From the UHGV virus genome UHGV-0279745: a DNA stretch of 64,000 nt; one strand, given 5' to 3'. Each line of letters opens with the position of its first letter. Within the stretch, counting starts at the first letter, position 1. Below the pieces are notes generated by a model. It did not search any database. It was given only the letters and a program-made list of their open reading frames with translations, and was not told the origin of the DNA. The DNA comes from a virus. Both the position numbers and the translations under genes were made by a program. Below are positions 1,337-62,518 of the stretch, one piece after another.

Positions 1337-1362
1337 GTAAAAACCTAAAAGGAGAATATATC

Positions 1363-1917
1363 ATGTATCTGACTAAACTGAAAAATGAAATTATCCAATC
1401 CCTTGAAAAAGGTGTAGGTGAACATTTCTTTAACTGTCCCTATACCGTACTGACCAATACCATTATTCAGCCAGGTGCGATGATAGTAGGGGTGAGTGTA
1501 CAAGCTGTGGAGGAAACCCCGCTGCGTCGCAACATCACGCGTAAAACGCATATCCCATTTAGAACGGGCTTTACAGATTACCTTCAGAGCTTACTGAAAG
1601 ATAGCGTTTGGAAAACAGGCAGCTTCTTCCACGATGGGAAGACTTCCACGCTGGTTTATAAAGAGAACACCAAGTATCTGGTTGATTTTCTCTTAGCGCG
1701 TCAATACGATTTCTTTCCATCCCCTTCTGGCACCACCCCTGATAATCCAGGTAAGTTATTAAACCAAGACGAAGCCGAAGCACTCTTTACAAGACTTCGG
1801 AATGAGCACTGCGATGTTGATGACTGGGAAACGTTGATCGCTGTCGCCAAAGTACATGGTTGGTATACTGTACGTAAAATCGGTCAGCAGTTGTTGTTCT
1901 TAGCTTACCCTGCTTAA
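1363..1917 (+). CDS. hypothetical protein, paralog family A member 2
   Basis: ORF track; strong RBS (ctaaaaggag); C-terminal HGWYTVRKIGQQLLFLA motif. Confidence 0.65.
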   Translation: MYLTKLKNEIIQSLEKGVGEHFFNCPYTVLTNTIIQPGAMIVGVSVQAVEETPLRRNITRKTHIPFRTGFTDYLQSLLKDSVWKTGSFFHDGKTSTLVYKENTKYLVDFLLARQYDFFPSPSGTTPDNPGKLLNQDEAEALFTRLRNEHCDVDDWETLIAVAKVHGWYTVRKIGQQLLFLAYPA

Positions 1918-1946
1918 GTAACGAAAAACCCTAAAGGAGAGTAAAA

Positions 1947-3098
1947 ATGCGAAATATTATTTCTAAGCCAGGACATGCCAAGATCCTAAAAGAACTGATG
2001 GACAGATGCTATAATCGGACTTGGTCACTACCAAGCTTAACCATCGAGTCTTCATTACAACGTGAGTTGTTTGGTTATAACTTGGGCTGTTGTGTACTTA
2101 GTGAATACAACCAGGTTATCGCGCCTGTCGATGTCTGTACTTCCGATGAAGAAATTGAAGGTTACCAGTTCACAGCTTACACAAATTGTGGACTAAATTA
2201 CCGTAAACTCGTTGTTAGGGAAATGAGTAGCAACCGGAAGATTATGTTTAAGGTCTTCCCAAGTGGTAAAGTCAGTAATTTATGTTTTCAGCTTGAGAAA
2301 GTGCCCTTTCACGGTGCAGCCATTTTAACTAAACCAGAACTCCTGTTATTAAGCGGGTTAATTGGCTTTGAAGTAAAAACCATCAAAGTTGAGCAGGAAC
2401 TTACACGAAACGATTTCGGCTCAACTTGGTACGAAAGTTTCTTCCGCTACGAAATGTTAAGTGATAAAGCTATCAAACTCACTTACCGTTCTACCGACGA
2501 CATCGTTTACCACATTTTAATTAGCGGCGAACCCCACCAGATTATTGAAGTCGGAGGAGAAAAATCCGTGCGTACCTTAAAAGATGAATTAACTGATTTT
2601 GTTAACAAAATTGATAACGTGGGTATCAGTGAATTATTGTTCCCGATTCAACATCCAGAGCTGCTTGACGAGAAATCTGAAAACGTGGTTATGGGTGTGC
2701 ATTTACTTCCTGACCATCTTGCTATCTACCGTACACTTTCTAAGAATCAACTTAAAGTGTGGTGCCTGTTAAAAGACCTTTTAACAGAGGCGGGGTGGTC
2801 GTGTAGTGTAGATGTTAACTGTGAAGGAGTTGCGTTCTTCATCACAATAGGCAATCGTAGTTTTTCTGTCGATTTACCTACTCGCAGCTATTACAATTTC
2901 TTCCCGACCGCAGAAGGACGTACTGAAAAAGAACCCGCATTACTGCTCAGTGCTGAGGAGTCCAATGCGTTAATGGCGAAACTAAAGGCGAAAGACGAGA
3001 AGCTGGATGCTTTACATCTACCTATAATCGGGAAAGACTACGGTTGGGCTGACGTGCAAAAATACGGCAGTCAGCTGTTGTTTGTTGCTGACCTTTAA
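1947..3098 (+). CDS. hypothetical protein, paralog family A member 3
   Basis: ORF track; RBS ctaaaggag; C-terminal GWADVQKYGSQLLFVA motif. Confidence 0.65.
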   Translation: MRNIISKPGHAKILKELMDRCYNRTWSLPSLTIESSLQRELFGYNLGCCVLSEYNQVIAPVDVCTSDEEIEGYQFTAYTNCGLNYRKLVVREMSSNRKIMFKVFPSGKVSNLCFQLEKVPFHGAAILTKPELLLLSGLIGFEVKTIKVEQELTRNDFGSTWYESFFRYEMLSDKAIKLTYRSTDDIVYHILISGEPHQIIEVGGEKSVRTLKDELTDFVNKIDNVGISELLFPIQHPELLDEKSENVVMGVHLLPDHLAIYRTLSKNQLKVWCLLKDLLTEAGWSCSVDVNCEGVAFFITIGNRSFSVDLPTRSYYNFFPTAEGRTEKEPALLLSAEESNALMAKLKAKDEKLDALHLPIIGKDYGWADVQKYGSQLLFVADL

Positions 3099-4532: not shown

Positions 4533-4570
4533 TCGGTGGGGGTAAACCCCCCACCTTTTATTTTTTTGTT
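4533..4570 (+). terminator. intrinsic terminator
   Basis: ggtggggg-taaa-cccccacc hairpin followed by a long T-run. Confidence 0.7.
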
Positions 4571-4592
4571 CGTTAATATTAAAAATAATTTC

Positions 4593-4614
4593 AGATATAT
4601 ATTACCTAGGTGAG
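4593..4614 (+). promoter_or_regulatory. candidate early-type phage promoter element, copy 2 (agatatatattacctaggtgag)
   Basis: Contains TATATTAC; lies between a terminator and the next gene; followed by a gtgagag/ctctcac hairpin (4610..4631). Confidence 0.45.
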
Positions 4615-4660
4615 AGTACAAAAGCTCTCACTTAATAAAACCATTTTAGGAGTATTAAAG

Positions 4661-5032
4661 ATGAAAAACGAATTATTTAAAGACCCGTTTGTTGTATTAA
4701 TGATCGTTACTCGCGCTGCCACTAACCCAGAAAACCTGAAACGTTTACTTACTAACGAAGCATACCTTATCGAACAGCGTGACGCGCAGTTAGCCAAACC
4801 GCACGCTGAAGGCCAGGCGAAAGACCTTATCTCTATTTTCCGTAACGAAGAATGGCGTAAAAACAACGAGCTGTCCGACAACTTGACGGTTGCAATTGCA
4901 AAACTCTTGACACTGTTCAATCTCGACAAAGACATTAACCAAAGCCTTTCTACAGAAGAACGTCTGGAAATGATAAGAGGTATCGGAGATAGTTATACAC
5001 AGATTAAAGCATTCCCCAACACAGTTATTTAA
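4661..5032 (+). CDS. hypothetical early protein, dispersed paralog of the 62129 gene
   Basis: ATG at 4661 with extended RBS ttaggagtattaaag; N-terminus MKNELFKDPFVVLMI identical to the 62129 ORF; first 44 coding nt identical. Confidence 0.7.
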   Translation: MKNELFKDPFVVLMIVTRAATNPENLKRLLTNEAYLIEQRDAQLAKPHAEGQAKDLISIFRNEEWRKNNELSDNLTVAIAKLLTLFNLDKDINQSLSTEERLEMIRGIGDSYTQIKAFPNTVI

Positions 5033-5078
5033 TTTCATAATTTGTGGGAATTTCCCCATAACCCGAAGGAGCATTTCA

Positions 5079-5955: not shown

Positions 5956-5973
5956 TCTAAAGGAGTAGTTATA

Positions 5974-6459
5974 ATGAAACGTTTACACACATTGATGTTC
6001 TTTCTGGTTTTCTTGTTTATCGGTGTCACGCCAACTGTAGATGCGGCCTCCGTAGACGAATTGCTTACCTGCGATGGAAACGCTTGGGAAGGTCAGCCAA
6101 ATGCGTGCCCAAACATCAACGACTTGTACGATACCGATAAGTCGTTTAAAGCCGTTGTTGATAAAACATTAGACCCTGTGGGACTGGATGGTATGTTCGG
6201 CTCTAAAGGTTACATGGATGGCCCTGGTGGTAACATGTATCCGGTAAACATCAACAACAAAATCTGGATTGAAAGTGGCGGTTGTAAAGCTAACGCTTGT
6301 GGTTGGGAATACATCGTAACGCTATACAACCCACACACCAAGAAACTCGTCGGCTATTACTACAACATCGACCCCGGTTATCTGATTTGGTTCGGTGATA
6401 TCGGTGTTGCCGAATTCGCTTACCTGGTTAAGAAATACGTAGAACAATCTAAATACTAA
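5974..6459 (+). CDS. small secreted cysteine-containing protein
   Basis: ORF track; signal peptide ending VDA; strong RBS ctaaaggag; multiple Cys. Confidence 0.65.
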   Translation: MKRLHTLMFFLVFLFIGVTPTVDAASVDELLTCDGNAWEGQPNACPNINDLYDTDKSFKAVVDKTLDPVGLDGMFGSKGYMDGPGGNMYPVNINNKIWIESGGCKANACGWEYIVTLYNPHTKKLVGYYYNIDPGYLIWFGDIGVAEFAYLVKKYVEQSKY

Positions 6460-7289: not shown

Positions 7290-7320
7290 TTGGCCCCGAT
7301 ACGTTCGGGGTCCTTTTTAC
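7290..7320 (+). terminator. intrinsic terminator
   Basis: ggccccga/tcggggtcc hairpin plus T-run. Confidence 0.6.
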
Positions 7321-7347
7321 GACATGTTTACCTAAAGGAGTATTAAA

Positions 7348-7824
7348 ATGCAATTATCTAACGTTTACCAAGCTGCGCAATTTCATCATGACCTGTCGGC
7401 TAAACCTGAACAAATTCGCCACAACTTAACGGTGGCCTGGAAACTGCTGCGTATCGCCGAAGCCTCGCGCCTTAACGATCAGTCGACGATTATCGAAACG
7501 GTGCGCACACTACATCCAGTCGACCTGGAAACAATCTGGACCTTTGATTTAACCCGAATTTATCACCGTCGTTTTAATGCGGCAGTTGATGCGATCCGTC
7601 CTTACTTTCACCACCTGCGGACAACACGCGAAAATGACACTGCACTTGAATGGGTATTGGTACAAAGCGTATGGAGCGACTACATTTATCTCCTTTCTTT
7701 AGAGACGGGTGAATGTATCGTTGCTAACGAAGTTTTTTCAAGTAACGCAGAAATGTATCGTTCCTTCGCGACGATTAAAGGTGAAACACAACCTATTTTA
7801 TCACTCACGCACTTAGGGCTGTAA
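7348..7824 (+). CDS. hypothetical protein
   Basis: ORF track; RBS cctaaaggagtattaaaatg. Confidence 0.65.
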   Translation: MQLSNVYQAAQFHHDLSAKPEQIRHNLTVAWKLLRIAEASRLNDQSTIIETVRTLHPVDLETIWTFDLTRIYHRRFNAAVDAIRPYFHHLRTTRENDTALEWVLVQSVWSDYIYLLSLETGECIVANEVFSSNAEMYRSFATIKGETQPILSLTHLGL

Positions 7825-12737: not shown

Positions 12738-13235
12738 ATGTTAACGGTACGTAAAGAATCTGAAATTGGTAACGATCTTTTTAATGCGCCCGAAGACTAT
12801 AAAGTCGTTACCATTAATTGCGTAGGAGCGATGGGTCGCGGTATTGCACTCGCGTGTCGTGAACGCTACCCCAACCTTTACCAGGATTATCGTAAGCGGT
12901 GTCGTGAAAACGAAATTAAGATTGGAAACGTTTACGTTTACTCTGACGAAAAGTGTATCTTGCTCCCCACGAAAACCCATTGGCGCTTAAAGTCCCAGGT
13001 TTCTTATGTTACTGCGGGCATTACCGCACTAGCGGATTGTGCTGAGGATCTGGATACCAGCGTTGCTATCCCTCCACTGGGAATGGCAAACGGGTGGTTA
13101 GATTCCTGGGAAAGACAAGAAATCTTTTTGTGGCTTTACAAAAAACTTGAATCAAGGAGACAACACTACACGTTATACTTACCTGATAAGTTGTACCAAG
13201 AAGCAGAGTCATTAATTCCAAACTCTTTTAAATAG
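12738..13235 (+). CDS. macro-domain-like protein (tentative; ADP-ribose binding/processing fold)
   Basis: ATG 12738 preferred over TTG 12675; motif VTINCVGAMGRGIALA resembles the macro-domain glycine-rich loop; assignment from motif only. Confidence 0.4.
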   Translation: MLTVRKESEIGNDLFNAPEDYKVVTINCVGAMGRGIALACRERYPNLYQDYRKRCRENEIKIGNVYVYSDEKCILLPTKTHWRLKSQVSYVTAGITALADCAEDLDTSVAIPPLGMANGWLDSWERQEIFLWLYKKLESRRQHYTLYLPDKLYQEAESLIPNSFK

Positions 13236-13253
13236 ATATTATCATTAGGGCAC
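13234..13253 (+). promoter_or_regulatory. candidate promoter-like element, variant class (agatattatcattagggcac)
   Basis: Shares the AGATAT..TTATC core with two other intergenic sites and resembles the early motif. Confidence 0.25.
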
Positions 13254-13335
13254 ACAACAAAGGAGTATTAGCTGTCCGCGCCGTCATTTCGTCTTACGGA
13301 ATACGGAAATGTATAAATCCAACTGGAGAAACAAA

Positions 13336-14034
13336 ATGTTTCGTATCTTCTTTCTTTTACTGGTAACACTTTTCGCGTTTAACGCACAGGCGTCAACGTC
13401 AACGCCACATTCTAAGCATCAGCGTGAGTTTGCACAAATCCAACATCGGTTCGAAAAAGTCAGCCCGTTAATTGTGGAAATCTCACGAAAGCAGGGCGTT
13501 GATCCCAAGCTGATGATTACGCTGATTTATCGTGAATCGCGTTTTGATCCCAAGGCTTACAACAAAAGCTCACGAGCACATAGCCTGGTACAAATGCTTC
13601 CAAGTACCAAACGTAATCTGCTAAAGCTTTATGGAAAAGAATTAGGTCTTAGTCAGAACGCCGATTTGTATAATCCGCGCAACGCTGTTTTGCTGGCTAC
13701 CGCGTATGTTAAACATCTTGAGAAGGGGTTAACCAAACGACTCAAACGCAAGCCCACCATGGCTGAAATTGCGTTAGCTTACCACTGGGGTGAAAGTGGC
13801 GCTCACACGCGAATCAAAAGCAAATCTCGAGCAGCACAACGAGAAATGGCAGGCTTTATGAAAGACGCCGCGTTCTATAGCGCGAAAATCGATGTGCCTG
13901 TTGTTGTGGGCTCGGCCCCACGTCAGCTTGCGTTTGCGAAGAAAACACCACGTCAGATTCAACTGGCGGAAGTTAGTAGAATTTGGGATACGATAAACAC
14001 GAGTTTTCCAATCAATAGAGGAGTTACCCTTTGA
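13336..14034 (+). CDS. secreted lytic transglycosylase (SLT domain)
   Basis: ATG 13336 with GGAGA RBS; signal peptide MFRIFFLLLVTLFAFNAQA; SLT motif ESRFDPKAYNKSSRAHSLVQMLPST. Confidence 0.6.
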   Translation: MFRIFFLLLVTLFAFNAQASTSTPHSKHQREFAQIQHRFEKVSPLIVEISRKQGVDPKLMITLIYRESRFDPKAYNKSSRAHSLVQMLPSTKRNLLKLYGKELGLSQNADLYNPRNAVLLATAYVKHLEKGLTKRLKRKPTMAEIALAYHWGESGAHTRIKSKSRAAQREMAGFMKDAAFYSAKIDVPVVVGSAPRQLAFAKKTPRQIQLAEVSRIWDTINTSFPINRGVTL

Positions 14035-14586: not shown

Positions 14587-14606
14587 TTCCCTAAAGGAGC
14601 AGAGTT

Positions 14607-15086
14607 ATGATAAAATTCATTTGGCGTTATCCAACGCGTTTTTGGTTTGTGGTACTTGAACTGTGTATGGTTCTTGTAGCGGTTACTTTTGTCGAAGCGC
14701 CCGCCTCGCAGTTGGCCATTTTCTGCCTTTTCGTGACTGTCCCTGTATGGGTGATTGCGAAGGCTATTAAGTTCGTCATGGTGTGTTGGGCGAATTATAC
14801 CTGTCCGTATAAGCCTAAACAAATCATGAAATGGCTGATGTATATTGAAGAACGTTTACCGGCGCAACATAAATTACTGGGCTGGTCGTCAATGTTGGAT
14901 ATTGCACTAGAAACCAATGCAAAGTTCCCCGGTGCGAAAAACCCTTATTTGTTGATGGCGGTAATTGTTGCACAACAAAAACTGGTGGGTGACCGTTGGT
15001 TGCCAGAAGAAGCGAAAGCGTATATCCGTAAACATCCAAAAGCTTTTTACTCGGTAGGACAATGGCGTAACTTGCCATTATTTTAA
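14607..15086 (+). CDS. membrane protein (multiple predicted TM helices)
   Basis: ORF track; RBS cctaaaggagc; hydrophobic N-terminal half. Confidence 0.65.
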   Translation: MIKFIWRYPTRFWFVVLELCMVLVAVTFVEAPASQLAIFCLFVTVPVWVIAKAIKFVMVCWANYTCPYKPKQIMKWLMYIEERLPAQHKLLGWSSMLDIALETNAKFPGAKNPYLLMAVIVAQQKLVGDRWLPEEAKAYIRKHPKAFYSVGQWRNLPLF

Positions 15087-15140
15087 CTTTTTTACATAAC
15101 CCTTAGTTGATTTGAACAAACCTAAAAGAGGACTATTAAA

Positions 15141-16076
15141 ATGACTTTTCCATCTGAAGTAATTCACGAACTGGCTAACACGCTACGTCGTTACCATAGC
15201 AGCAAGACGATGCAAACCAATGTGGGTGCGACCGCCGACTTTTTACGTGGTTATTTCCTGGGCAGAAATCCAACGTCGATTACACAGGAAACGGTTTTCT
15301 CTATCGAACGTACCTCCTTAATCCTTCCAATTGATAATTTCACTGCGTTTCAAGAAAGGAATACGTTCAACTTCTCTATGGGAATGCTGTATTCGACCAT
15401 CGCCATTAATCCCATCATGAGAGATGACCCATCTTTCGTGCCTTACCAACATACAACGGATCACGGTAATTGGTTCGTTGTGGTAGAACAAGGTGCGAAT
15501 CAGTATGATGTTGTTGCAGCTCGTGACGAAGCTTTCTTTGATTTAGGGCAGATTTATCGCCGTCAAGAAATTGCGTTTGACCTACGTCAAGGTAATATCG
15601 GATTAAGTGGGTCTGCTGTCTATTTCATCCTGAGTAGTTGGTCACATGTAGGTTTTGTGCTGATGAAAAAAGGACCGTTGTTCAACTCACCGTTGGTAAA
15701 ATACCATAACCCTGAGGAAGGAGATCATGACGAAGAAGAAACGGTACCTAGCACAGAAGTCGCCGTTTGTGAAAACTACGATGATCTGAAATCTGTACTC
15801 GTTAAGCGTGATGTTTTCGAATCGTTAAACCTGGATTTCCCCGGTGACGAAAATGAAATATCCGTAGCTGACCTGGTAGAAGCGTTGTGTCAGAAAGACC
15901 AAGCTAACGAAATTAGCGACGAAGAAGCAGAACTCTTCCAAGTTCAACAACTCGTCAGCAAGGTTATCGGTGGACAGGGAATCGTTGACACTCTTATGGC
16001 TCTACCGCCGAAGAAACGAACTCAGAAGTATATTCGTGAGCTGGTTCTTGAAAACCTGGGTCAAACCAAAAAGTAA
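15141..16076 (+). CDS. hypothetical protein
   Basis: ORF track; RBS aaaagaggac. Confidence 0.65.
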   Translation: MTFPSEVIHELANTLRRYHSSKTMQTNVGATADFLRGYFLGRNPTSITQETVFSIERTSLILPIDNFTAFQERNTFNFSMGMLYSTIAINPIMRDDPSFVPYQHTTDHGNWFVVVEQGANQYDVVAARDEAFFDLGQIYRRQEIAFDLRQGNIGLSGSAVYFILSSWSHVGFVLMKKGPLFNSPLVKYHNPEEGDHDEEETVPSTEVAVCENYDDLKSVLVKRDVFESLNLDFPGDENEISVADLVEALCQKDQANEISDEEAELFQVQQLVSKVIGGQGIVDTLMALPPKKRTQKYIRELVLENLGQTKK

Positions 16077-16083
16077 TTTAAAT

Positions 16084-16118
16084 CCCCTACTCCTCCGGGA
16101 GTAGGGTTAATTCTTTTT
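16084..16118 (+). terminator. intrinsic terminator (CCCTACTCC/GGAGTAGGG stem family)
   Basis: ccctactcc-tccg-ggagtaggg plus T-run. Confidence 0.7.
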
Positions 16119-16137
16119 CCACCTTAGGAGTATTAAA

Positions 16138-16689
16138 ATGTTTCCATCGTCTGAATATTTAACTCATCTGGCTTACGGTATTCGCCGTGGTTCTGTTTTC
16201 CGCACACGTTTAAAGGATATAAATTTCCTGGCTAATTTCTTATTTGATCGTTTGTGGGATGGCGATAGTGTTTACAAAAAGATCACCGTAACACAACTTT
16301 ATTCCCTTATAGCAGCATCTGAAATTGTGCCTACGGATATTCGTCGATTTAAACGACAGCATAACGGGGATGTTACAATCAGCTTTCTTGATCGTTCTCC
16401 TATTACCGTTGAAATCGACGATCGTATTGACGCTAATAGTGAAATGTCTGGTTGGAAGATTCTGTTTGATTGTGGCAATCGTTATGCGGTACTTGGTTCC
16501 TCTGATGAGCGCGACTTCCCATTCGACAAACCCTACTACTACCTCAGTGAAGACGATTTCCCGGATAAAGAATCCAACATCTTTTTAAACGGAGACACAG
16601 TTTACTTCATTTTTCGTACCTGGAACGATGTTGCTGCTATGATTGCTCAAGGCGTCATCGATTACCGTAAACTAGAAGTTGACATTTAA
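16138..16689 (+). CDS. hypothetical protein
   Basis: ORF track; RBS ccttaggagtattaaaatg. Confidence 0.65.
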   Translation: MFPSSEYLTHLAYGIRRGSVFRTRLKDINFLANFLFDRLWDGDSVYKKITVTQLYSLIAASEIVPTDIRRFKRQHNGDVTISFLDRSPITVEIDDRIDANSEMSGWKILFDCGNRYAVLGSSDERDFPFDKPYYYLSEDDFPDKESNIFLNGDTVYFIFRTWNDVAAMIAQGVIDYRKLEVDI

Positions 16690-16700
16690 AATAAAAGCTA

Positions 16701-16731
16701 CCCTACTCCCGAAGGAGTAGGGTAATCTTTT
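16701..16731. terminator. bidirectional intrinsic terminator between convergent genes
   Basis: ccctactcc-cgaa-ggagtaggg flanked by A-run upstream and T-run downstream. Confidence 0.7.
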
Positions 16732-17355
16732 TTAGTTAACTAACCCGTTAGCTTTAAGAATCTCTAACATTTGGTTGTTTAACTCTTTTAATTTTTTGTT
16801 CTCTTCTGTCAACGCAGCAACTTTCTCACCTAATGGAATAGATTCACGAATTTTATTTTTTCGTGCCGCTTCCATCTGCAAGTGTTGTTCCTCCGTTACC
16901 TTTCCTTCATACTCGAGCGTTGTAATTTCAACTTTCGGCTCAATCCCTAGTGTATGCGTGAGAATATCTGAAACGTCTTTTGTTATAGACGACACTTTCA
17001 CGTAATCCGGTACCAGTGCCAAATCTACCACTAACACATTTCGTTGATACGTGATCCCGGATAAACCTGGGTATGATTCCAGGTAGGTGTCAGGTATGTA
17101 TACAACTTGACCGTCCCGAGATTTAAATGTCAGAATCGATGCACTAACATTCGCATCTGCTAAATATTCTTCACGTCCTAGCCCTACTGGCTGGTAATAC
17201 GAGTTATAAACGTCAATATTCTGACGTACTAAATCTGGGAAGGTACGTGACGCTTCTACCGTATAAATGACCGTCTCGGCTAAAGTAAACGGTGTTTTTA
17301 CTTTAAACAGTCCCGTGGTGTTGACTGGTACCTGGAGTGGTAAACGCGTAGCCAT
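16732..17355 (-). CDS. hypothetical protein (possible virion protein)
   Basis: ORF track; minus-strand pair with 17359..18732. Confidence 0.6.
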   Translation of the reverse strand: MATRLPLQVPVNTTGLFKVKTPFTLAETVIYTVEASRTFPDLVRQNIDVYNSYYQPVGLGREEYLADANVSASILTFKSRDGQVVYIPDTYLESYPGLSGITYQRNVLVVDLALVPDYVKVSSITKDVSDILTHTLGIEPKVEITTLEYEGKVTEEQHLQMEAARKNKIRESIPLGEKVAALTEENKKLKELNNQMLEILKANGLVN

Positions 17356-20547: not shown

Positions 20548-22068
20548 ATGAAGAACGTTGATGTTGCAGTAATTTACACGGATGGTAGCCATTTGACCTC
20601 CCCGCTCGGTACAGGAGCGGGGATTCATGGATACTTATTTAATCGTGAAGCGATTGAGGATGGTCGGGTTTACCGTCATCCCTCTATTCCCGAGGGGATT
20701 ACGACGTCAGGATACCGCCAGATAAACAAGGATGAAAAACTTCCACCTTTACCAGAAACCGTGGAGTTTATTGACGGTGTTGTGCCTGTACCAAAAATGT
20801 CACACTCCGACGTTGCAGAACTCGTGGCTTTCCTGACCGTCTTCGAACACGCACCTTTCGTTGCCAAAAACTATGTTATCTATATCGATGCCTCTTACGT
20901 TGTCAACACGTATAACGATTGGATTGATGGTTGGGCTGCACGCGGTTGGCGTCGTGCAGACGGTACGCCTATTGCGAACTTGGAATTAATCCAACGGATG
21001 TGGGAGGTTAAACAGCGGTTAAAGAAAGAAGGGAAAGGTATTCGTGTCCTTAAAATTAAAGGGCACTCAGGACGCTATGGAAACGAGCGTGCCGACGAGT
21101 TAGCACGGAAAGGTTCAAGTATTTCGGCTCGAGGTGAGGGGTTAGACTATACACCGTATTGGTCAAAAGACGAGATGCCTGAGGAAGAACAGCAACCAGA
21201 AGTTGTTGGTGAAGGTGTCAATTTGTCTGCTTTTCCCGATATCTGTGTTACGAAGTTCTGTTACCCGATGGTGAACGAACCGCATCCCACTGTTACAGTT
21301 AACGGTAATAAACTTTATTACATGTTCGGTGGGAACCATGCAAAACAGAAGGACGATATCGTCTTCGTTGGTAAGTACATTCCAGATGCACAATTCTGCG
21401 TAATGTTTACCAAAGAACCATGGAACAACGTATACGAGTTGGTAAATACCCACTCTGCGAAAGCGTGGGAAGGGGTGCCCCGTTTACGTCAGTTTGATCC
21501 CATTGCCGTTGTTTTTAACTTATTCGTAAAACGTAAGAAGTTCGCAGAAGCCGCAGGTAACGGTATTCCTGTCGATCGGATGCATTTTAGCGAAGACAAA
21601 AACCTGTGGATGTTTGAAGATCTTTCGATTACACGAATTCTTCGTCCCGCGTTATTGTCTTATCGCTGCATTACGATTCGTGATGAGCTTGCAGGTTGGT
21701 TACGCGATGCCATGGAGGGGAAAAACTCAGTCGTAATGAACGACATTACTGACCTGCTTTACGATGAGAAAGGTAAGCCGAAGAAAGACTTTTATCGTAA
21801 CGTAGATAAAGGTTTTGACGTAACTATCCATATCCCTGGTAGTAAAAACAAGGTTAAAACCATCCTTACTCGAGGTATCGACATACCGACGCGTACGGAA
21901 ATCAACCGTATGAAAGAACCAGAAGGACGATTCTACGTGGCGGTACGGCGTCCAGAACGGCAGTATATCGAGTACGCGTTGGTTTATATTGGGGAAAAAT
22001 ATCATGGGTTGTGGTGTGGCTATTATTCAAACAAACGAATATTGACGGATAAGGAGCTTGAATGCTGA
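20548..22068 (+). CDS. RNase HI-domain protein with about 330-aa C-terminal extension
   Basis: N-terminal RNase H motifs YTDGS ... YIDASYV ... HSGRYGNERADELA; 506 aa total. Confidence 0.65.
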   Translation: MKNVDVAVIYTDGSHLTSPLGTGAGIHGYLFNREAIEDGRVYRHPSIPEGITTSGYRQINKDEKLPPLPETVEFIDGVVPVPKMSHSDVAELVAFLTVFEHAPFVAKNYVIYIDASYVVNTYNDWIDGWAARGWRRADGTPIANLELIQRMWEVKQRLKKEGKGIRVLKIKGHSGRYGNERADELARKGSSISARGEGLDYTPYWSKDEMPEEEQQPEVVGEGVNLSAFPDICVTKFCYPMVNEPHPTVTVNGNKLYYMFGGNHAKQKDDIVFVGKYIPDAQFCVMFTKEPWNNVYELVNTHSAKAWEGVPRLRQFDPIAVVFNLFVKRKKFAEAAGNGIPVDRMHFSEDKNLWMFEDLSITRILRPALLSYRCITIRDELAGWLRDAMEGKNSVVMNDITDLLYDEKGKPKKDFYRNVDKGFDVTIHIPGSKNKVKTILTRGIDIPTRTEINRMKEPEGRFYVAVRRPERQYIEYALVYIGEKYHGLWCGYYSNKRILTDKELEC

Positions 22069-22730
22069 TCGTTTATAGTGAGGTCTTGTCAAAAGCCCCC
22101 CGGTTTTTACAAACTCACTTTATGTATAACGCACGGCAGTATTGGGGCTTTAAAGCCCCTTACTCCGAAGATTGGGAAGTTGTGGAAAAGTTAGCATTTG
22201 TGTTTTCTCTTTCGTTGTTGTGGGAGATCATTGCACTATACAACGCGGGTTGTGATATCCCGGAGAACGGCTTTTTCCAACAACACCTATTCCAAAAATT
22301 CACAGCATCGGTAGAAAATCATGAAGTGCGCAAGGAGTGTATCGGCTACGCAGAGCATTCTGAAGAATTGAGAAAGATTTCCAAATTAGTTATCACGCGG
22401 ACATGGGCTGAATTCGAAACTTACCCCGAAAAAATAATTTGGTTTAATCGTGAACAGTTTATTAAAGAGGCAGTCAGTCAACATCCCGTTCGACTAATCG
22501 TGTTAAAGCCGTCAGATCTCGCCTTACGCCACATCTATTCGTCTCCAGAGGAAATCGTTTTTTCCTCTGGAACAACAGATTATGGTATTTTTAAACAAGG
22601 CGATTCTTGGATTCTTCCACACGATTTAGACGGGTATTTGCTCAGTAGCGATCAAATACATTCGGGTTATGACTCACAGGTGAAGGAGTTTACAGTCGAT
22701 CCTTTTTTCGCTAAAAATATTCTTAGATAG
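22062..22730 (+). CDS. hypothetical protein
   Basis: ORF track; start overlaps upstream stop (ATGCTGA). Confidence 0.55.
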   Translation: MLIVYSEVLSKAPRFLQTHFMYNARQYWGFKAPYSEDWEVVEKLAFVFSLSLLWEIIALYNAGCDIPENGFFQQHLFQKFTASVENHEVRKECIGYAEHSEELRKISKLVITRTWAEFETYPEKIIWFNREQFIKEAVSQHPVRLIVLKPSDLALRHIYSSPEEIVFSSGTTDYGIFKQGDSWILPHDLDGYLLSSDQIHSGYDSQVKEFTVDPFFAKNILR

Positions 22731-22745: not shown

Positions 22746-22766
22746 AACACCATTGGAGTTATTAAA

Positions 22767-23507
22767 ATGCTAAAAGTTTATGTCCCTCAATTACAACGTA
22801 TCAATCCCTCGTTGTTCGAGGGAATCTTTTATAAAATTTGGCCACAATACTTCAATGAACGTTTGAAAGACCCAAGGTGGTCGACCGTACAAGGAGAATT
22901 CTTTTATACCGCACAAACCGCCTGCACAGGTATTTTCACTCAGTTCATTGGAGAAATTATTAACGCCGTCAACACTAACCGAACTGTCGACCTACGTGAC
23001 GTTACAGTAGACCTCTCATCAATCTACGATAACTACGATTGTGATGATGCTGTGTTCGAACACTTTTCTGTTGAAGACGTTTGGGAAGCAGTGTACCAGT
23101 GGTTAGAGTATTACGTGAATTACCTACTCTCCCCAGAGATGTTAGAAACCTTCAACAAAGCACTCTTTCCTATTTATAACGACTTACTCAACGTTAAACA
23201 AACAAAGAACCTGGTTGGGTTCTGGTATTCGACCTACGACGCCGAATGTAAGTTGTGGGAAAAAGAAATGATTGCTTACGGGATAGAACGGGGAGACTAT
23301 GTTGAGATTCACTGTGGTTTCTGGCCATTCAGTCACTACGAGAACGCACGGCTTGGTATCTCACGATTGTGGTCGTTTTATCTCTGTGAAGCTACGGGCG
23401 TTATTTACCTTGAAGACAGCGGCGCACAAATCCCTAACGGTACTGTTGTAACATACTGCCAGATTCGTGAAGATCGGGGTCGGCCAATTTATCAGGAGTA
23501 CGTATAA
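22767..23507 (+). CDS. hypothetical protein
   Basis: ORF track; RBS cattggagttattaaaatg. Confidence 0.6.
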   Translation: MLKVYVPQLQRINPSLFEGIFYKIWPQYFNERLKDPRWSTVQGEFFYTAQTACTGIFTQFIGEIINAVNTNRTVDLRDVTVDLSSIYDNYDCDDAVFEHFSVEDVWEAVYQWLEYYVNYLLSPEMLETFNKALFPIYNDLLNVKQTKNLVGFWYSTYDAECKLWEKEMIAYGIERGDYVEIHCGFWPFSHYENARLGISRLWSFYLCEATGVIYLEDSGAQIPNGTVVTYCQIREDRGRPIYQEYV

Positions 23508-24049
23508 TGAAAATACTTATCGATTTCTCACTCAGCGAGTCACGGGGCAAATTAAACAAACTGTTAAGTGAGATGCGTAGCCGCGTTGCGTTTGAACTGC
23601 ACGACGCGATAGCAGTACATGAGAACAAGATTTCTGAAGAACACAGTGGGGTCGAAATTACTATCCTGGATTCAGAAGCGATGGTGAATAATCTCATTGA
23701 ACAGTTAGAGCGAAAAATCCATTCGGCCATGACATACCCACATCTAGTGCGGGTAACTGATCCCGATACGGATATTCACCTGATTCTTGAGAAAGCCTTT
23801 CTACATGCCGCGCATTACTTACAGAATAATGCTCCAGATACCCTCGATGAAGTGTATGTCGCCATATTGCAGCGACAATCTTCAACGACGGATATAATAG
23901 ACACAACGTGTTGGAGCGATATTCTTACCAACGAAACAATGTCCCGTATCCGGGATATTTTCCTTGAGACACTCGGGTTAGTTGAGAAAATCTGCCATGC
24001 TGAGCTCATCTACCTGTCATCAAAATACGGTCAACCTAAAGGAGTATAA
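23507..24049 (+). CDS. hypothetical protein
   Basis: ORF track; TAATG stop-start overlap. Confidence 0.6.
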   Translation: MKILIDFSLSESRGKLNKLLSEMRSRVAFELHDAIAVHENKISEEHSGVEITILDSEAMVNNLIEQLERKIHSAMTYPHLVRVTDPDTDIHLILEKAFLHAAHYLQNNAPDTLDEVYVAILQRQSSTTDIIDTTCWSDILTNETMSRIRDIFLETLGLVEKICHAELIYLSSKYGQPKGV

Positions 24050-24051
24050 TC

Positions 24052-24576
24052 GTGGATATTTTAATTCAGCTTCGCAAGAAAACAACCATTGCCACACCGA
24101 TAGCGCTAGAGGAGAAAATCTCTGGTGCGGTTGCACGCAAGCTCTGTGGTGCTCACGGCTTTAGCGACCATCAGGAGCGGGTCGTTACTGTCGCCACATT
24201 ACACAACTTACGACACACAGTACATTACTGTTTAGTTGACAACGTCACCATCACTCTTGATGATAACGTAAATGTCGACCAACTGCGGCGCGAAATTGTC
24301 CACAAGATCGAGGCTTACAATAGACGTTTCGAACGGGCATGTACGCGTTTAACTGATGACGAAGCACTACGAAAACGTTTGAAACTTGAAATTGAATATG
24401 CAGCGCAACGTTATGGGGTTGGCGGTACCGAACCGTGTCTGACCGAACAAGAAATCACGTTAGCAATCGAGGTTTATACCACTCTCTGCTGCGCCATCCT
24501 AAAAGAGACCAACCACGAAATTACAAAAGCGTTGTTAAACACCGCAGACAAAATCACCCCAATTTTAGGACAATAA
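24052..24576 (+). CDS. hypothetical protein
   Basis: ORF track; GTG start with cctaaaggagta RBS. Confidence 0.55.
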   Translation: MDILIQLRKKTTIATPIALEEKISGAVARKLCGAHGFSDHQERVVTVATLHNLRHTVHYCLVDNVTITLDDNVNVDQLRREIVHKIEAYNRRFERACTRLTDDEALRKRLKLEIEYAAQRYGVGGTEPCLTEQEITLAIEVYTTLCCAILKETNHEITKALLNTADKITPILGQ

Positions 24577-24577
24577 A

Positions 24578-25066: not shown

Positions 25067-25070
25067 TAGA

Positions 25071-25104: not shown

Positions 25105-25125
25105 ACCATTTTAGGAGAATAAACC

Positions 25126-26052
25126 ATGTATTTGTACAAAAGTAAAAAAGTAAAAGGTATTAAAGACTGCCTTAGACAAATGGGGTCTCAGCATCTTGAA
25201 AATGTAATGGAAGAAAACCGAATAAAGGAAAATCCTGTCTCGAAATGGATAAAAAAGAATCGTAACCATTTAACCAATGCCTTTATACCTTACGACGCTG
25301 AGTTAGGTCTCAAAGATCCCCGTTCCCTTCACGCACAAACATTAGCAATTGGATGGCTATACGGTGGTGCTTCCTTAATATCCAACCAAGCACTTAGAGA
25401 ACTTGTTTTCGAGACTGAGATGCCCAGTAAATTCCCTGAAGAATGGTTGGACTTTATACCTACCTGGACTGTGGCAATCGACGTAGGTAAAGAGGATGAG
25501 ACTTTCTTTCTCGGCTATCGAAAAAACGGGAATAGAAGGTTTATCATAATTGCTACAAATACTGATTACGGGTTAACAGAAGGCGTTACCACAATTGCCA
25601 CTTGTTCGTTAGAGCTTCGTAGTGCAGGAAACGGGCTTGTGGAAATCGACTATGCCGACGGTGTGGAGAACGAACAAGAAAAGATGCTATGGTTATCTCT
25701 GGCCAAAGCCGCTACTTCGATGATATTTCTGTGCACGCTAATCCCGCCCAATTACAGGGAGTCTTTTAATGATATTAAGTTCAAGGAAATCAAAAAGAAC
25801 GGTAGTATTAGTTACGACGTTAAACCTCGTGAACGCGATGTTAAGATAGATATCACGCCAGGACAAGTGAATTATCTAAAAGGGTTTAACACTGACTTGA
25901 AAACCATGCAGGGTATCAAACATGCTAAGGCTGCCCACATCCGTCGCGCTCACTGGCGCAGATATTGGGTCGGCCCTAGAAATGGTGAAAGAAAAAGAAA
26001 ACTTTGTTGGATTCCACCTACATTTGTCCGTGGCTACGTACCCCACAATTAA
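25126..26052 (+). CDS. hypothetical protein, tandem paralog family B member 1
   Basis: ORF track; C-terminal AHIRRAHWRRYW..W.PP motif shared with next gene. Confidence 0.65.
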   Translation: MYLYKSKKVKGIKDCLRQMGSQHLENVMEENRIKENPVSKWIKKNRNHLTNAFIPYDAELGLKDPRSLHAQTLAIGWLYGGASLISNQALRELVFETEMPSKFPEEWLDFIPTWTVAIDVGKEDETFFLGYRKNGNRRFIIIATNTDYGLTEGVTTIATCSLELRSAGNGLVEIDYADGVENEQEKMLWLSLAKAATSMIFLCTLIPPNYRESFNDIKFKEIKKNGSISYDVKPRERDVKIDITPGQVNYLKGFNTDLKTMQGIKHAKAAHIRRAHWRRYWVGPRNGERKRKLCWIPPTFVRGYVPHN

Positions 26053-26076
26053 GCTAAAGTGTTTAGGAGTATTAAA

Positions 26077-26976
26077 ATGACAACGAATAATAGACTTTAC
26101 GGGAAAGCGCTAAGACGCATGAGCGAACAAATAGAAAAGGCACACCAAACAATTCACGGATTAGATCAGTGTCGTTTTATTCGGTTCATTAACGAGCATA
26201 AACGTCAAATACCCGTAACGTTTATACCAGTTAAAGATCCGACCTATCGTGAGTATGGCGTTACAGAACAGATTCCCAGACTGATTAAGCAGTCTCTGGG
26301 ACTAGGATGGCAATACGCTGCTGTTGAAATCATCTCGGATGAAGAACTGATGGCGCTCTTAGCAAAAACTGAGAGACTAAAAAATATCCCGTACTTCTGG
26401 ATAGAAACCATCCCTTCATTTACTTTCTCGGTTACTGTAAATCTCGACGAAAGTCCAATCACGTTATTTATCGGAAGACGTCTTTACGAAGGTGAAGAAG
26501 TTCTCTTTGTGATGTCATGCGAAGAACATGGCGAGTCGGTATACATGGAGTTTGAGATTTACACGATCGACAAAAGTAATGATGATTTCGTGGAGTTAAA
26601 GCCGCTCCTTACTTCGGTTAAGGAGAATCAACGACTACTCGACGCGGTCTACATCGGGCTATATCTTTCATCACGAATTAAGCGAACCGAACGTGAGAAG
26701 AAAGAATTTCGCGGAAGGTCCATTCGTTATGTTCCTGATACAGAAATTCGCCCACGTAGTGAAGCAGTCGTTTTAGATGTAAGTCCGGTACAATGGGAAG
26801 ATATAGAGCAGCAACGCAAGGAAGGACACGAGGTTTGTTTGGCGATTTATTGCGCCGCACATATCCGTCGTGCGCATTGGAAGCGTGTATGGTGTGGTAA
26901 AATGTCAGAAATGCGCTGGCGCGAATGGCGATGGATAGCGCCGAGTTACATTTCTGGATTTTATCGTGGGAAATAA
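26077..26976 (+). CDS. hypothetical protein, tandem paralog family B member 2
   Basis: ATG 26077 with gtttaggagtattaaa RBS; C-terminal AHIRRAHWKRVW motif. Confidence 0.65.
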   Translation: MTTNNRLYGKALRRMSEQIEKAHQTIHGLDQCRFIRFINEHKRQIPVTFIPVKDPTYREYGVTEQIPRLIKQSLGLGWQYAAVEIISDEELMALLAKTERLKNIPYFWIETIPSFTFSVTVNLDESPITLFIGRRLYEGEEVLFVMSCEEHGESVYMEFEIYTIDKSNDDFVELKPLLTSVKENQRLLDAVYIGLYLSSRIKRTEREKKEFRGRSIRYVPDTEIRPRSEAVVLDVSPVQWEDIEQQRKEGHEVCLAIYCAAHIRRAHWKRVWCGKMSEMRWREWRWIAPSYISGFYRGK

Positions 26977-29687: not shown

Positions 29688-29731
29688 ATAGGCTCGGGTA
29701 GGGTAAACCCTACCCGACCTAAGGAGTCATC

Positions 29732-30031
29732 ATGCGTTATCAAACGGAGATTGTGGAACGCTTAAGTGAAGGATTGGCAAGTGTTAATTTAGAAACAGCG
29801 GCCGAATTTCGTGAAGCCTTCACTCACCCGTTTCCCGATCTGGAATCCTTTTGTTTAAAGGTCGCTGAGTATTACTCGAATCTATTAGTACGTTACGGGT
29901 ATGCGCCAGTACGTTCCGAACTTCCTGAAAACACGGAAGCTATCAGCTACTGGATTGACCTGCTTGAAGCAGAAACGTTATCCAATTTACGTAAGGCGGT
30001 AGACAATGAAACTCGAACCAGCGCGGCGTAA
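29732..30031 (+). CDS. hypothetical protein
   Basis: ORF track; RBS cctaaggagtc. Confidence 0.5.
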   Translation: MRYQTEIVERLSEGLASVNLETAAEFREAFTHPFPDLESFCLKVAEYYSNLLVRYGYAPVRSELPENTEAISYWIDLLEAETLSNLRKAVDNETRTSAA

Positions 30032-36082: not shown

Positions 36083-36101
36083 ACCCTAAAGGAGAATTAC
36101 C

Positions 36102-36470
36102 ATGCAAGCTCAGTTTTTTAGTACACCCAAAGGTTTCGGTTTTAAATTCCCTGAATTTGTTTTACCAAAACAAGTTATTGAAGTACCCTTCCCCCGTTAT
36201 GTGCAATTAGGACTGCGCACTGTACTTGCCAACTTTTCGGGAAAGACTGTGGAAATTCGTGTGTGGGAAGGTTCGGGAACTCCTGGCGGTGTTATGTTTG
36301 TTGATTACAATTGGATTAAAAGAACAGGTTTTCCGCTTGTACGAACAGTTGAGGCTGCTCGTGGATTACCCTTCCACGTTCTACTGGAAGATATAACGTT
36401 ACCTGTAACTGGCGATTATTCTTCTCCTGCGGATGACGAATACCAAATTCATCTTGTTTTGTTGAAATGA
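36102..36470 (+). CDS. hypothetical protein
   Basis: ORF track; RBS cctaaaggagaa. Confidence 0.6.
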   Translation: MQAQFFSTPKGFGFKFPEFVLPKQVIEVPFPRYVQLGLRTVLANFSGKTVEIRVWEGSGTPGGVMFVDYNWIKRTGFPLVRTVEAARGLPFHVLLEDITLPVTGDYSSPADDEYQIHLVLLK

Positions 36471-40338: not shown

Positions 40339-40357
40339 AAACTAATGGAGTTTTAAA

Positions 40358-41191
40358 ATGGGCGAACGTTTTGACATCAACACTATTTACAACATCGTAG
40401 TTAATCCTGGTCAACACCTGGAAGAAGTTAACGCGCAACTGCGCGCTCTGAATGAGAATGCAGTACAGTTCGATGCTATTTACACAATTGGTGTAAACCC
40501 TGGCACCAACCGTATTCGTGTAGAAGGTAAACGCCACACCGGTAATCAAGAACTGGACATCGAAACAATTGTAGCGCCTATTAAGCTTACCGATGCTGTT
40601 TACAACGGCACGGTAATGCATACAGAATCTGTTCCGGTCTACTCTATTGAAAACTGTGTAGAACGTGTTAAAGGTTGGTCTAAAGAACGTGGTATTCTCG
40701 ATAACGGTAAACTGGAAACCCAAATCACGAAGTTCTTTGAAGAGTTAGGTGAAATTGCGGCGGGTATCAGTAAAAACAAACCTGAGTTGATCATGGATGG
40801 TATTGGTGATGCGTTGGTGGTTCTGGTAAACATCATCGAATTAGGGGATGCTTATTCTGGTCACCTTACAGTGGCAGAAGACTGCATCGAGTCTGGTCTA
40901 CGCTTAGGTGTGGAAGATGTAGCTGAAGTTGAAGAAAATTTAAACAACGCTGGATACCCACATCAACAATACCTTCACGCTATTGAAAGTTTTGCCACAA
41001 CCTTTATGGAAGGCAAAGATCATGGTTTCGATTTCGTTAGCCTGGGTTTAGCTCATCTTGCTCGTATCGCCTTGTATTACAAACTGGACATTCGTCATTG
41101 TTTCTCTTTGGCCTGGCACGAAATCAAAGACCGTAAAGGTTACCTGAACGCCGACGGTATCTTTGTAAAAGAAGCAGACCTGGCGAAATAA
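40358..41191 (+). CDS. MazG-like nucleoside triphosphate pyrophosphohydrolase domain protein
   Basis: C-terminal half shows EELGEIA ... DGIGDALVVL ... WHEIKDRKG pattern typical of MazG/all-alpha NTP-PPase. Confidence 0.55.
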   Translation: MGERFDINTIYNIVVNPGQHLEEVNAQLRALNENAVQFDAIYTIGVNPGTNRIRVEGKRHTGNQELDIETIVAPIKLTDAVYNGTVMHTESVPVYSIENCVERVKGWSKERGILDNGKLETQITKFFEELGEIAAGISKNKPELIMDGIGDALVVLVNIIELGDAYSGHLTVAEDCIESGLRLGVEDVAEVEENLNNAGYPHQQYLHAIESFATTFMEGKDHGFDFVSLGLAHLARIALYYKLDIRHCFSLAWHEIKDRKGYLNADGIFVKEADLAK

Positions 41192-62036: not shown

Positions 62037-62055
62037 CCCTATTGAAAATTATCTT

Positions 62056-62077: not shown

Positions 62078-62128
62078 CGTTGTAGAATTACACGCTATTC
62101 GACTGTTTAACCTAAAGGAGTATTAAGA

Positions 62129-62518
62129 ATGAAAAACGAATTATTTAAAGACCCGTTTGTTGTATTAATGATTTCTACTCGTGCTATCACACGTCAAGAT
62201 GACCTGGAACGATTAATTACAGATGAAACTTATCTGTGCGAGCAACGTGACAAACTACTGAACAAAGAATGTTCTTGTGAAGATATCGGTCCTCTAGTGA
62301 CTATCGTCCATAACCCAGAGTGGCGTAGAAACAACGAATTGTCTGATATCTTGAGTGTTTCGCTTGCAAAACTGGCAATGTTGTTCTCTCTCGATAAAGA
62401 CCTTAAACAATGTCTTACTACGCCAGAGCGCATCAAAATGTTTGAAGGCATTCGGGAATCAGTTAAACAAATTAACGCTATCAAAAGCAATTGGATACTC
62501 TCTAGCGTAGGTAGCTAA
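62129..62518 (+). CDS. hypothetical early protein, dispersed paralog of the 4661 gene
   Basis: RBS cctaaaggagtattaaga; first 44 nt of CDS identical to 4661..4704; protein similar along full length. Confidence 0.7.
   Translation: MKNELFKDPFVVLMISTRAITRQDDLERLITDETYLCEQRDKLLNKECSCEDIGPLVTIVHNPEWRRNNELSDILSVSLAKLAMLFSLDKDLKQCLTTPERIKMFEGIRESVKQINAIKSNWILSSVGS

Follow-up and report, generated by a model that had tools for sequence, protein, structure and literature searches.

The closest analogue in kind of the repeat described here is the SAS (Start-Associated Sequence) of Cluster K mycobacteriophages, a 13-bp sequence (GGGATAGGAGCCC) that occurs with at most two deviations in 11 to 19 copies per genome and whose function is unknown (PMC3203893). 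The RegB/S1 system of phage T4 depends on an 11-nt sequence, GGAGAAUAAAA, in early ribosome binding sites (RBSs), which consists of a GGA triplet followed by an A-rich tract that is nearly devoid of C (PMC1702504). T4-type phages also possess PeSLs (promoter-early/stem-loop composites), short conserved regulatory cassettes with sigma-70 promoters that are located between small accessory ORFs (PMC2839356, PMC4122927). For the phiKZ family, AT-rich early promoters (at about −10) and a conserved terminator hairpin motif are known (PMC7598289, PMC10914365); conserved terminators together with AT-rich early promoters have been described for phiKZ and 201phi2-1 (PMC10914365, PMC11512511). In the literature searched, no repeated start-site block was described for this phage family, the phiKZ-family papers reporting only promoters and terminators.

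The repeat considered here is located in a stretch of 64,000 nucleotides of the virus genome UHGV-0279745, referred to as the window. Its reference copy is the 20-mer CCTAAAGGAGTATTAAAATG, which occupies positions 7331 to 7350 of the + strand and whose last three bases form the ATG of ORF 7348-7824. The SAS (PMC3203893) and the window block are both asymmetric, AGGAG-containing repeats positioned a few bases 5′ of the start of a subset of non-structural genes; both prefer ATG, have conserved flanks that do not pair with rRNA, and are kept across sub-lineages at different gene families. In placement the two correspond, the window block being found 3 to 7 bp 5′ of non-structural gene starts, in one orientation, and with flanks lacking rRNA pairing. 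The window block differs from the SAS in sequence, only the AGGAG core being common to the two, as well as in host phylum and phage family; its copies are more degenerate and composed of two independent halves, and the 17-bp inverted-repeat extension of the SAS (ESAS) was not seen in the window block. Because the sequences differ, the SAS is an analogue of the window block, which is not a member of the SAS repeats.

The window block may be compared with the T4 RegB/S1 site in that a GGAG is followed by a 7-nt tract nearly free of C in the starts of early-type genes. The T4 site favors A at its sixth, eighth, and eleventh positions; the TATTAAA of the window is U/A-mixed, with A at positions 6, 9, 10, and 11 and U at position 8, so that of the three favored positions only 6 and 11 are A in the main variant; the sequence GGAGAATAAAC at 25126 matches the T4 pattern at 10 of 11 positions. 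As in the phiKZ family, the window contains a repeated AT-rich promoter-like motif and terminators with a common stem (CCCTACTCC/GGAGTAGGG).

Results

The window belongs to a phiKZ-like jumbo phage

A megablast search with 6 kb of the window against GenBank phages gave no nucleotide match. The RNase H-like protein encoded at 20548-22068 is 64 to 66% identical to its counterparts in the Erwinia phages Asesino and phiEaH2 and in the Salmonella phage SPN3US, the gene order of the window is syntenic with those of Asesino and SPN3US, and the Pfam domains found in the window include thymidylate synthase, Peptidase_S80, SLT, Macro, and SMC-like domains. The window is thus part of a phiKZ-like jumbo phage related to SPN3US, Asesino, and phiEaH2, a relationship recognized by protein-level search only. 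In IMG/VR, two contigs of 221 to 225 kb show 93.7% and 96% DNA identity to the window over long alignments, and two further contigs encode RNase H-like and MazG-like proteins that are 77 to 86% identical to those of the window. Each of the two closest contigs contains two or three exact copies of the 20-mer, some of them beyond the range of the window; the latter precede genes of 143 and 500 aa, for neither of which similarity to window proteins was detected. A search of 596 Gb of bacterial genomes found the 20-mer once, which corresponds to the chance level of about one (2 × 5.96e11/4^20), and it is therefore neither a host feature nor host mimicry. The 15-mer AGGAGTATTAAAATG was uninformative as an IMG/VR probe, since it retrieved more than 120 unrelated contigs with one copy each, and an Rfam scan of the window gave no match.

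The block is a feature of a subset of gene starts

In the window, 74 gene starts were called from codon-usage scores, with greedy non-overlap and a weight matrix that takes the Shine-Dalgarno sequence (SD) into account. The SD-aware choice of starts is a caveat; each motif-bearing start is the first ATG of its ORF or is backed by orthologue alignments. With up to three mismatches, CCTAAAGGAGTATTAAAATG has five copies in the window, while 100 dinucleotide-preserving shuffles gave none. Among all 10-mers of the window, CCTAAAGGAG and AGGAGTATTA are the most frequent, with six copies each. If one mismatch is allowed, CCTAAAGGAG has 10 matches (2.7 expected), 8 of which are located at called gene starts, and GGAGTATTAAA has 8 matches (1.6 expected), 7 of them at such starts; the exact copies of CCTAAAGGAG, and the + strand copies of GGAGTATTAAA with up to one mismatch, lie immediately 5′ of ORF starts on the coding strand. 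The individual copies are listed in Table 1. Every one of them contains AAGGAG or GGAG and precedes an ORF with coding potential and orthologues, and the three best copies have about 26 nt in common, TGT(A)TTTA(A)CCTAAAGGAGTATTAA.

Table 1. Copies of the start-site block and the associated cassette in the window
Feature	Position	Strand	Gene start	Context
CCTAAAGGAGTATTAAAATG (reference copy)	7331..7350	+	ORF 7348-7824 (158 aa)	19 nt 3′ of terminator-like hairpin 7292-7312
CCTAAAGGAGTATTAAGAATG	62111..62131	+	ORF 62129-62518, paralogue of 4661	3′ of putative early-type promoter 62056-62068 and hairpin
CCTAAAGGAGAGTAAAAATG	1930..1949	+	ORF 1947-3098	
CCTAAAAGGAGAATATATCATG	1344..1365	+	ORF 1363-1917, paralogue of 1947	
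CCATTTTAGGAGTATTAAAGATG (type-B variant)	4641..4663	+	ORF 4661-5032	
Cassette: putative AT-rich early-type promoter AGATATATATTACC (4593-4606), hairpin GTGAGAG..CTCTCAC, RBS block	4561..4660	+		
CTAAAGGAGTAGTTATAATG	5957..5976	+	ORF 5974-6459	14/17 match, without CC
CCTAAAGGAGCAGAGTTATG	14590..14609	+	ORF 14607-15086	3′ of hairpin and T-run
CCTAAAAGAGGACTATTAAAATG	15121..15143	+	ORF 15141-16076	
CCTTAGGAGTATTAAAATG	16122..16140	+	ORF 16138-16689, paralogue of 15141	3′ of terminator 16085-16106
CCATTGGAGTTATTAAAATG	22750..22769	+	ORF 22767-23507	11 nt 3′ of putative early-type promoter variant AGATATTATC
CCTAAAGGAGTATAATCGTG	24035..24054	+	ORF 24052-24576 (GTG start)	Within end of upstream gene
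CCATTTTAGGAGAATAAACCATG (type-B variant)	25106..25128	+	ORF 25126-26052	3′ of hairpin and T-run
TGTTTAGGAGTATTAAAATG	26060..26079	+	ORF 26077-26976, paralogue of 25126	Spacer half only
CCTAAGGAGTCATCATG	29718..29734	+	ORF 29732-30031	Block directly adjoins hairpin
CCTAAAGGAGAATTACCATG	36085..36104	+	ORF 36102-36470	3′ of terminator 36044-36069
ACTAATGGAGTTTTAAAATG	40341..40360	+	MazG-like ORF 40358-41191	3′ of hairpin and T-run

For a graded comparison, the identities to the 17 bases preceding the ATG of the reference block were counted. At least 16 of the 17 bases matched at 2 of the 74 gene starts and at least 14 at 8 of them, in both cases versus 0 of 1,617 non-start ATGs; at least 12 matched at 15 of the 74 gene starts, versus 1 of 1,617 non-start ATGs. 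In an alignment of all 74 starts, information was confined to the SD (positions −11 to −8, up to 0.92 bit) and the start codon, all remaining positions having at most 0.26 bit, with a mild preference for A/T and depletion of C and G. The block therefore belongs to a subset of genes rather than to the genes in general. An earlier note on this DNA had listed ten gene starts, all of which are indeed ATG starts with an SD upstream, and had described a nearly identical block of 15 to 20 nt at more than a dozen genes. With only two starts reaching 16 of 17 matches, "almost identical" overstates the similarity across starts. The view that conservation goes far beyond what an SD requires holds for the discrete subset of about 15 genes with recurrent flanks, which still stands out, and not for the gene set as a whole, in which conservation is limited to the SD.

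The core of the block has the properties of an SD region: it is complementary to the 3′ end of 16S rRNA, as judged by the standard enterobacterial tail, and located 5 to 9 nt 5′ of the start on the coding strand, and the spacer between GGAG and ATG measures 6 to 8 nt in 32 of the 35 genes with GGAG. Neither the CC located 3 to 6 nt 5′ of the SD nor the TAT directly following GGAG is complementary to the 3′ tail of 16S rRNA. Extended pairing with this tail was ruled out by inspection, because the U, A, and U after GGAG face C, A, and C. Also ruled out were a role of the TAA within CCTAAAGG as stop codon of the upstream gene, as the upstream ORFs stop elsewhere (e.g., at 7281 and 24049), and a CC..GG mini-hairpin hiding the SD, which would comprise just 2 to 3 bp with a loop of 2 to 4 nt.

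The block is a composite of two halves

The consensus of the window block is CCTAAAGGAGTATTAAA. On its downstream side, TATTAAA occupies positions −7 to −1 at five starts (P < 5e-5, independent column shuffles), and after removal of one member of each paralogue pair it is still found at four starts (P = 1e-4). On its upstream side, CCTAAA is present directly 5′ of GGAG in 6 of the 35 GGAG genes (P < 5e-5, column shuffles). No association exists between the upstream (CC..TAAA) and spacer (TATTAAA) halves (Fisher's p = 1), which identifies the 20-mer as a composite of the two; both halves are present in full only at 7348 and 62129. The spacing between CC and GGAG varies from 3 to 6 nt, and a second upstream variant, CCATTTTAGGAG (type B), is found at 4661 and 25126 and, in degenerate form, at 24578.

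Motif genes mostly follow intergenic DNA and are poorly conserved

Most motif genes start 3′ of an intergenic region. The CC half is linked to starts preceded by at least 25 nt of intergenic DNA (15 of 18, versus 5 of 17; p = 0.002), and the association of the GGAG-type SD with intergenic starts was not significant (p = 0.35). Ten of the 15 motif genes are located 3′ of either a terminator-like hairpin with a T-run, such as those at 7292-7312, 16085-16106, and 36044-36069, or an AT-rich promoter-like motif. The latter, AGATATATATTAC(C/T)TAGGTGAG, is present at 4593 and 62056, and a shorter form, AGATATTATC, is found 5′ of 22767. It fits the early-promoter class of RNA-polymerase-encoding jumbo phages (PMC7598289), a resemblance in sequence from which promoter activity may be presumed. 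Over positions −25 to +25, the motif genes have a median folding energy of −2.8 kcal/mol, versus −5.3 kcal/mol for the other genes (p = 0.0013); in the wider context of −60 to +60, the unpaired probability was alike for motif genes and others.

None of the ten motif genes (of about 15) that were scanned against PHROGs had a known function there, and in the structural block (41.2 to 61.5 kb) all 13 genes stay below a match of 12 of 17. Seven of the 15 motif genes, versus 6 of 40 others, have no detectable homologue in the syntenic regions of Asesino and SPN3US (p = 0.029), and the mean identity is 21% for the motif genes versus 46% for the others (p = 0.0008). The motif genes are a coherent class of small, non-structural, fast-evolving genes.

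Cassettes and paralogues carry copies of the block

Among the motif genes are four pairs of paralogues (1363/1947, 4661/62129, 15141/16138, and 25126/26077), which account for eight of these genes. In addition, a cassette of about 80 to 95 nt comprising a putative promoter, hairpin, and RBS recurs 5′ of non-homologous genes. In close relatives, the cassette at 4561-4660 is found with 92% identity over 79 nt in front of a 164-aa gene for which no similarity to the 4661 product or to any window protein was detected, one copy showing a compensatory loop/stem change; a diverged copy is present in the window at 62030-62128. A 25-nt block, AACCATTTTAGGAGAATATACCATG, is common to the 164-aa gene and the orthologues of 25126, the latter being located behind a terminator and not a promoter. 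One relative has gene 4661, and UViG_3300045988_113438 lacks it, with the junction situated right after the promoter-like motif (TAGGTGAGAG); this one indel junction suggests possible recombination at the cassette. The region is also mosaic, since a relative that is 92 to 100% identical in most 200-nt intervals falls to 48 to 74% identity across 15141, 22767, and 24578, and more distant relatives display patches of 88 to 97% identity across 16138 and 25126. The breakpoints are found near gene boundaries, not always at them, and only some coincide with the block.

These arrangements resemble the PeSLs of T4-type phages (PMC2839356, PMC4122927), which are likewise repeated in the genome and which adjoin differences in gene presence between close relatives, for which the junction at 4661 is the one clear case in the window. 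PeSL-like composites, in which an AT-rich promoter-like motif is followed by a hairpin, are located at 4561-4660, 62030-62128, and approximately 190-260, with copies in relatives. Unlike the PeSLs, the window cassettes carry a predicted promoter of the AT-rich phiKZ-type class instead of a sigma-70 promoter, and they also include the RBS. The four paralogue pairs and the cassette in front of a non-homologous gene support in part the suggestion of the earlier note that an expression cassette has been reused. Copying alone is insufficient, however, because the block is kept by paralogues with amino-acid identities of only 25 to 26% and because a related consensus exists in other genera.

A related consensus is present in other genera

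Asesino and SPN3US possess their own related, lineage-specific consensus, CCTTAAGGAGTAT. In Asesino, three exact copies are present in 41 kb, and seven copies with up to two mismatches were found where 0.46 was expected; for SPN3US, the corresponding numbers are five and 0.57. The consensus is sometimes located at genes whose orthologues in the window are without the block. The possibility that the TATG after GGAG in Asesino and SPN3US (GGAGTATG) is a phiKZ-type late start was rejected, as it is not conserved in the window orthologues. In relatives with RNase H-like and MazG-like proteins 77 to 86% identical to those of the window, the sequences 5′ of the genes have hardly changed, and the intergenic region 5′ of 40358 is 90 to 97% identical in relatives, compared to 77 to 83% for the DNA of the gene itself. 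When the upstream regions of the more distant IMG/VR relatives were compared position by position without gaps, motif and non-motif genes alike showed an identity of about 0.8; this comparison, which is also confounded by indels, is not discriminating.

Discussion

The block is probably an optimized translation initiation region of first cistrons that was spread in part by the copying of cassettes and has since been kept by selection. It has the appearance of a strong start signal, spread in part along with adjacent control sequences, and is a known sort of phage feature that involves no new mechanism. This interpretation draws directly on the position, strand, and spacing of the block, its over-representation, the reduced local structure, the persistence across genera, the reuse of the cassette, and the poor conservation of the genes concerned.

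AAGGAG is complementary to CUCCUU near the 3′ end of 16S rRNA (standard enterobacterial tail), and the block would accordingly form a 6-bp SD with the host 16S rRNA. The 7-nt spacer UAUUAAA, free of G and C, would place the AUG at the usual optimal distance and keep the site unstructured, which may make it a good substrate for loading of the 30S subunit, possibly with participation of S1. The A/T-rich stretch with CC upstream of the SD would mark starts that depend on de novo ribosome loading, because such starts come after either a terminator hairpin between genes or an early-type promoter of the phage. Genes bearing the block are predicted to be translated with high efficiency. Control modules of the promoter-hairpin-RBS and terminator-RBS type were probably copied with or beside accessory genes, presumably by tandem duplication, insertion, or replacement, and purifying selection has probably held the copies near a lineage-specific optimum since then. 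The literature search yielded no expression, RNA-seq, ribosome profiling, or transcription start site data for the SPN3US-like clade.

Canonical initiation regions of bacteria and phages likewise have an SD 7 nt from the ATG, A/U-rich flanks, and low local structure. Unlike these, the window block has identical flanks of 6 to 7 nt at unrelated genes, far above position-wise bias, and its CC and TAT do not pair with 16S rRNA. To our knowledge, the conserved CC and TAT do not correspond to any established ribosome contact, and as they persist in three genera, they hint at more than a generically A/U-rich and unstructured site. An additional recognition signal, the other suggestion of the earlier note, is conceivable in this regard.

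That the block is read by a trans-acting factor and singles out early or accessory mRNAs as a regulon to be cleaved, repressed, stabilized, or handled seems unlikely to us; within this reading, and with the same reserve, it could be the target of a RegB/S1-like endoribonuclease, the site of a RegA-like translational repressor, or the site of a phage mRNA chaperone of nucleus-forming phages. The flanks of AAGGAG, which are unable to pair with rRNA and conserved in three genera, and the coherence of the motif genes as a class would be in line with such a reader, and a precedent exists in the RegB/S1 site of early RBSs of T4 (PMC1702504), to which GGAGUAUUAAA (at 7348) and GGAGAAUAAAC (at 25126) may be compared. 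Among the 72 window proteins, representing about 64 kb of a genome of approximately 225 kb, no RegA or RegB Pfam family was found, however; the independence of the two halves and the variable distance between CC and GGAG are awkward for a single rigid site, and the match scores are graded and not all-or-none. A chaperone-like reader finds a parallel in ChmC of PhiPA3, which binds phage mRNAs with peaks near start codons, but these peaks are located 25 to 30 nt 3′ of the start and no ChmC motif was found (bioRxiv 10.1101/2023.09.22.559000).

We consider it rather improbable that the block represents a start-associated element specific to SPN3US-like nucleus-forming jumbo phages, whose CC/UAU flanks would be read by a phage or host factor that sets apart a fast-evolving early/accessory regulon from the other phage mRNAs. 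A similarly low probability is assigned to the letters beyond the SD being hitch-hiking remnants of recent duplication or copy-paste of genes with their leaders, devoid of any selected function. The paralogue pairs, the reused cassette, the roughly 26 nt common to the three best copies, and the gene-sized mosaicism of the region are what such copying would leave behind. Against it stand the retention of the block by strongly diverged paralogues, the intergenic region that is more conserved than the adjacent coding DNA, and the related consensus in genera whose RNase H-like core protein is only 64 to 66% identical, where it is sometimes placed at non-orthologous genes.

Very unlikely, finally, is a promoter or initiation region of one of the multisubunit RNA polymerases of the phage in the upstream half (T-rich tract, ACC, and TAAA) that overlaps the RBS and produces a very short leader: several copies begin just 10 to 20 nt after a terminator T-run, leaving little room for another promoter, the CC half is linked to intergenic starts, TTTTTAC is enriched in intergenic DNA (8 of 30 copies within 4.4% of the total length), the early-type promoter TATATTACCTAGG has a 3′ part similar to TTTACCTAAAGG, and middle and late promoters of these phages are, according to a review, not bioinformatically predictable (PMC7598289), but the distance from T-run or hairpin to CC is variable, the copy at 24035 lies inside the upstream gene with no room for transcription initiation, the copies at 4641, 22750, and 62111 are already 3′ of recognizable early-type promoters, starts at the early-class distance of about 6 nt from TTAC would put the transcript 5′ ends inside GGAG, and the phiKZ late element TATG, present at 27778-27875, is absent from these intergenic regions.

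With the block understood as a translation initiation region, a lineage-specific model of start sites resolves ambiguous gene starts, such as 4661 instead of 4610 and 26077 instead of 26059, and the block flags accessory, probably early, genes of SPN3US-like phages. The RBS and the promoter-hairpin-RBS modules are compact units for engineering, with a presumably high strength. After the SAS of mycobacteriophages, the block adds a second, independent example of repeats at gene starts with flanks that are unexplained by rRNA pairing. The cassettes suggest that in jumbo phages, accessory genes may be shuffled along with short regulatory elements, in the manner of the PeSLs in T4-type phages. In nucleus-forming phages, mRNA must exit the phage nucleus before it can be translated; a dedicated reader of the block, should one exist, would represent a layer of post-transcriptional control in these phages.

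Promoter-like and terminator-like elements

An AT-rich motif recurs in the window in a long form, TTTCAGATATATATTAC(C/T)TAGGTGAG, and in a short form, A(T/C)AGATATTATC, the latter being kept at orthologous positions in Asesino, phiEaH2, and SPN3US. As judged from its sequence, this putative promoter is consistent with the early promoters (those of the virion RNA polymerase) described for phiKZ-like phages; either a hairpin or a gene start lies downstream. The heptamer TTTTTAC occurs 30 times in the whole window, counting both strands, with eight copies located in intergenic DNA, which makes up 4.4% of the sequence; six of these eight precede genes (see table). The divergent intergenic region is kept in three genera on both strands, each of which carries a TATG approximately 27 to 33 nt upstream of the start codon, resembling the T(-3)ATG(+1) element of phiKZ late promoters. 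Three terminator-like hairpins have a 9- to 10-bp stem in common (CCCTACTCC/GGAGTAGGG) and differ in their loops, with a compensatory loop/stem change in one relative; they are reminiscent of phiKZ, for which a conserved terminator motif has been reported.

Coordinates of sequence features in the window and in related phages
Feature	Position	Strand	Remark
AT-rich motif, long form	205-230, 4587-4612, 62050-62078	+	
AT-rich motif, shorter variants	13233-13243, 22728-22738, 31844-31854	+	
Intergenic TTTTTAC ahead of genes	7314, 8535, 15089, 27820, 36078, 36471	+	
Divergent region	27778-27875		between 27022-27777 (-) and 27876-28175 (+)
Terminator-like hairpins, common stem	16085-16106, 16699-16724, 36044-36069		also 29698-29713
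Leader of SLT transglycosylase gene 13336-14034	13233-13335		compared with orthologous regions in Asesino (L001), SPN3US (L189), and L187
Block copies in Asesino (L001)	22273-22291, 24523-24541, 36270-36288		
Block copy in SPN3US (L189)	34115-34134		
Mosaic stretches	15200-15725, 22925-23500, 24575-25000; 15725-16800, 25025-26050		

Conserved leader of the SLT transglycosylase gene

Conservation of this leader spans three genera. It comprises, in this order, the early-type promoter motif, GGGCAC, ACAAAGGAG, a micro-ORF, and a conserved GGAAnACGGAAA..TAAATCC stretch. The micro-ORF, which reads TCC GCG CCG, starts with ATG CCG in SPN3US and with CTG in the others; it ends with TGA in four relatives and continues without that end in the window. 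The leader may represent a leader peptide or an attenuator.

The block and its genes in related phages

In Asesino and SPN3US, the shared ribosome-binding block reads GGAGTATG(T/C)(A/G)ATG, so that its spacer contains an out-of-frame ATG overlapping the true start, as ATG-TAA in two cases. Mosaicism in the window is gene-sized: one relative shows 92 to 100% identity in most 200-nt windows but only 48 to 74% across three genes, and relatives with 70 to 80% identity elsewhere display patches of 88 to 97% over genes 16138 and 25126. The close relative IMGVR_UViG_3300045988_113438 lacks gene 4661-5032 (window 4617-5066 versus 2789-2822 of its sequence); the same promoter-like motif is located there immediately 5′ of the orthologue of gene 5079, whose leader differs. 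The paralogues 4661 and 62129 share 55% protein identity, and their first 14 codons (ATGAAAAACGAATTATTTAAAGACCCGTTTGTTGTATTAATG; window 4661-4705 and 62129-62173) are identical in DNA sequence; gene conversion is one possible cause, and selection acting on the 5′ end of the coding sequence is another.
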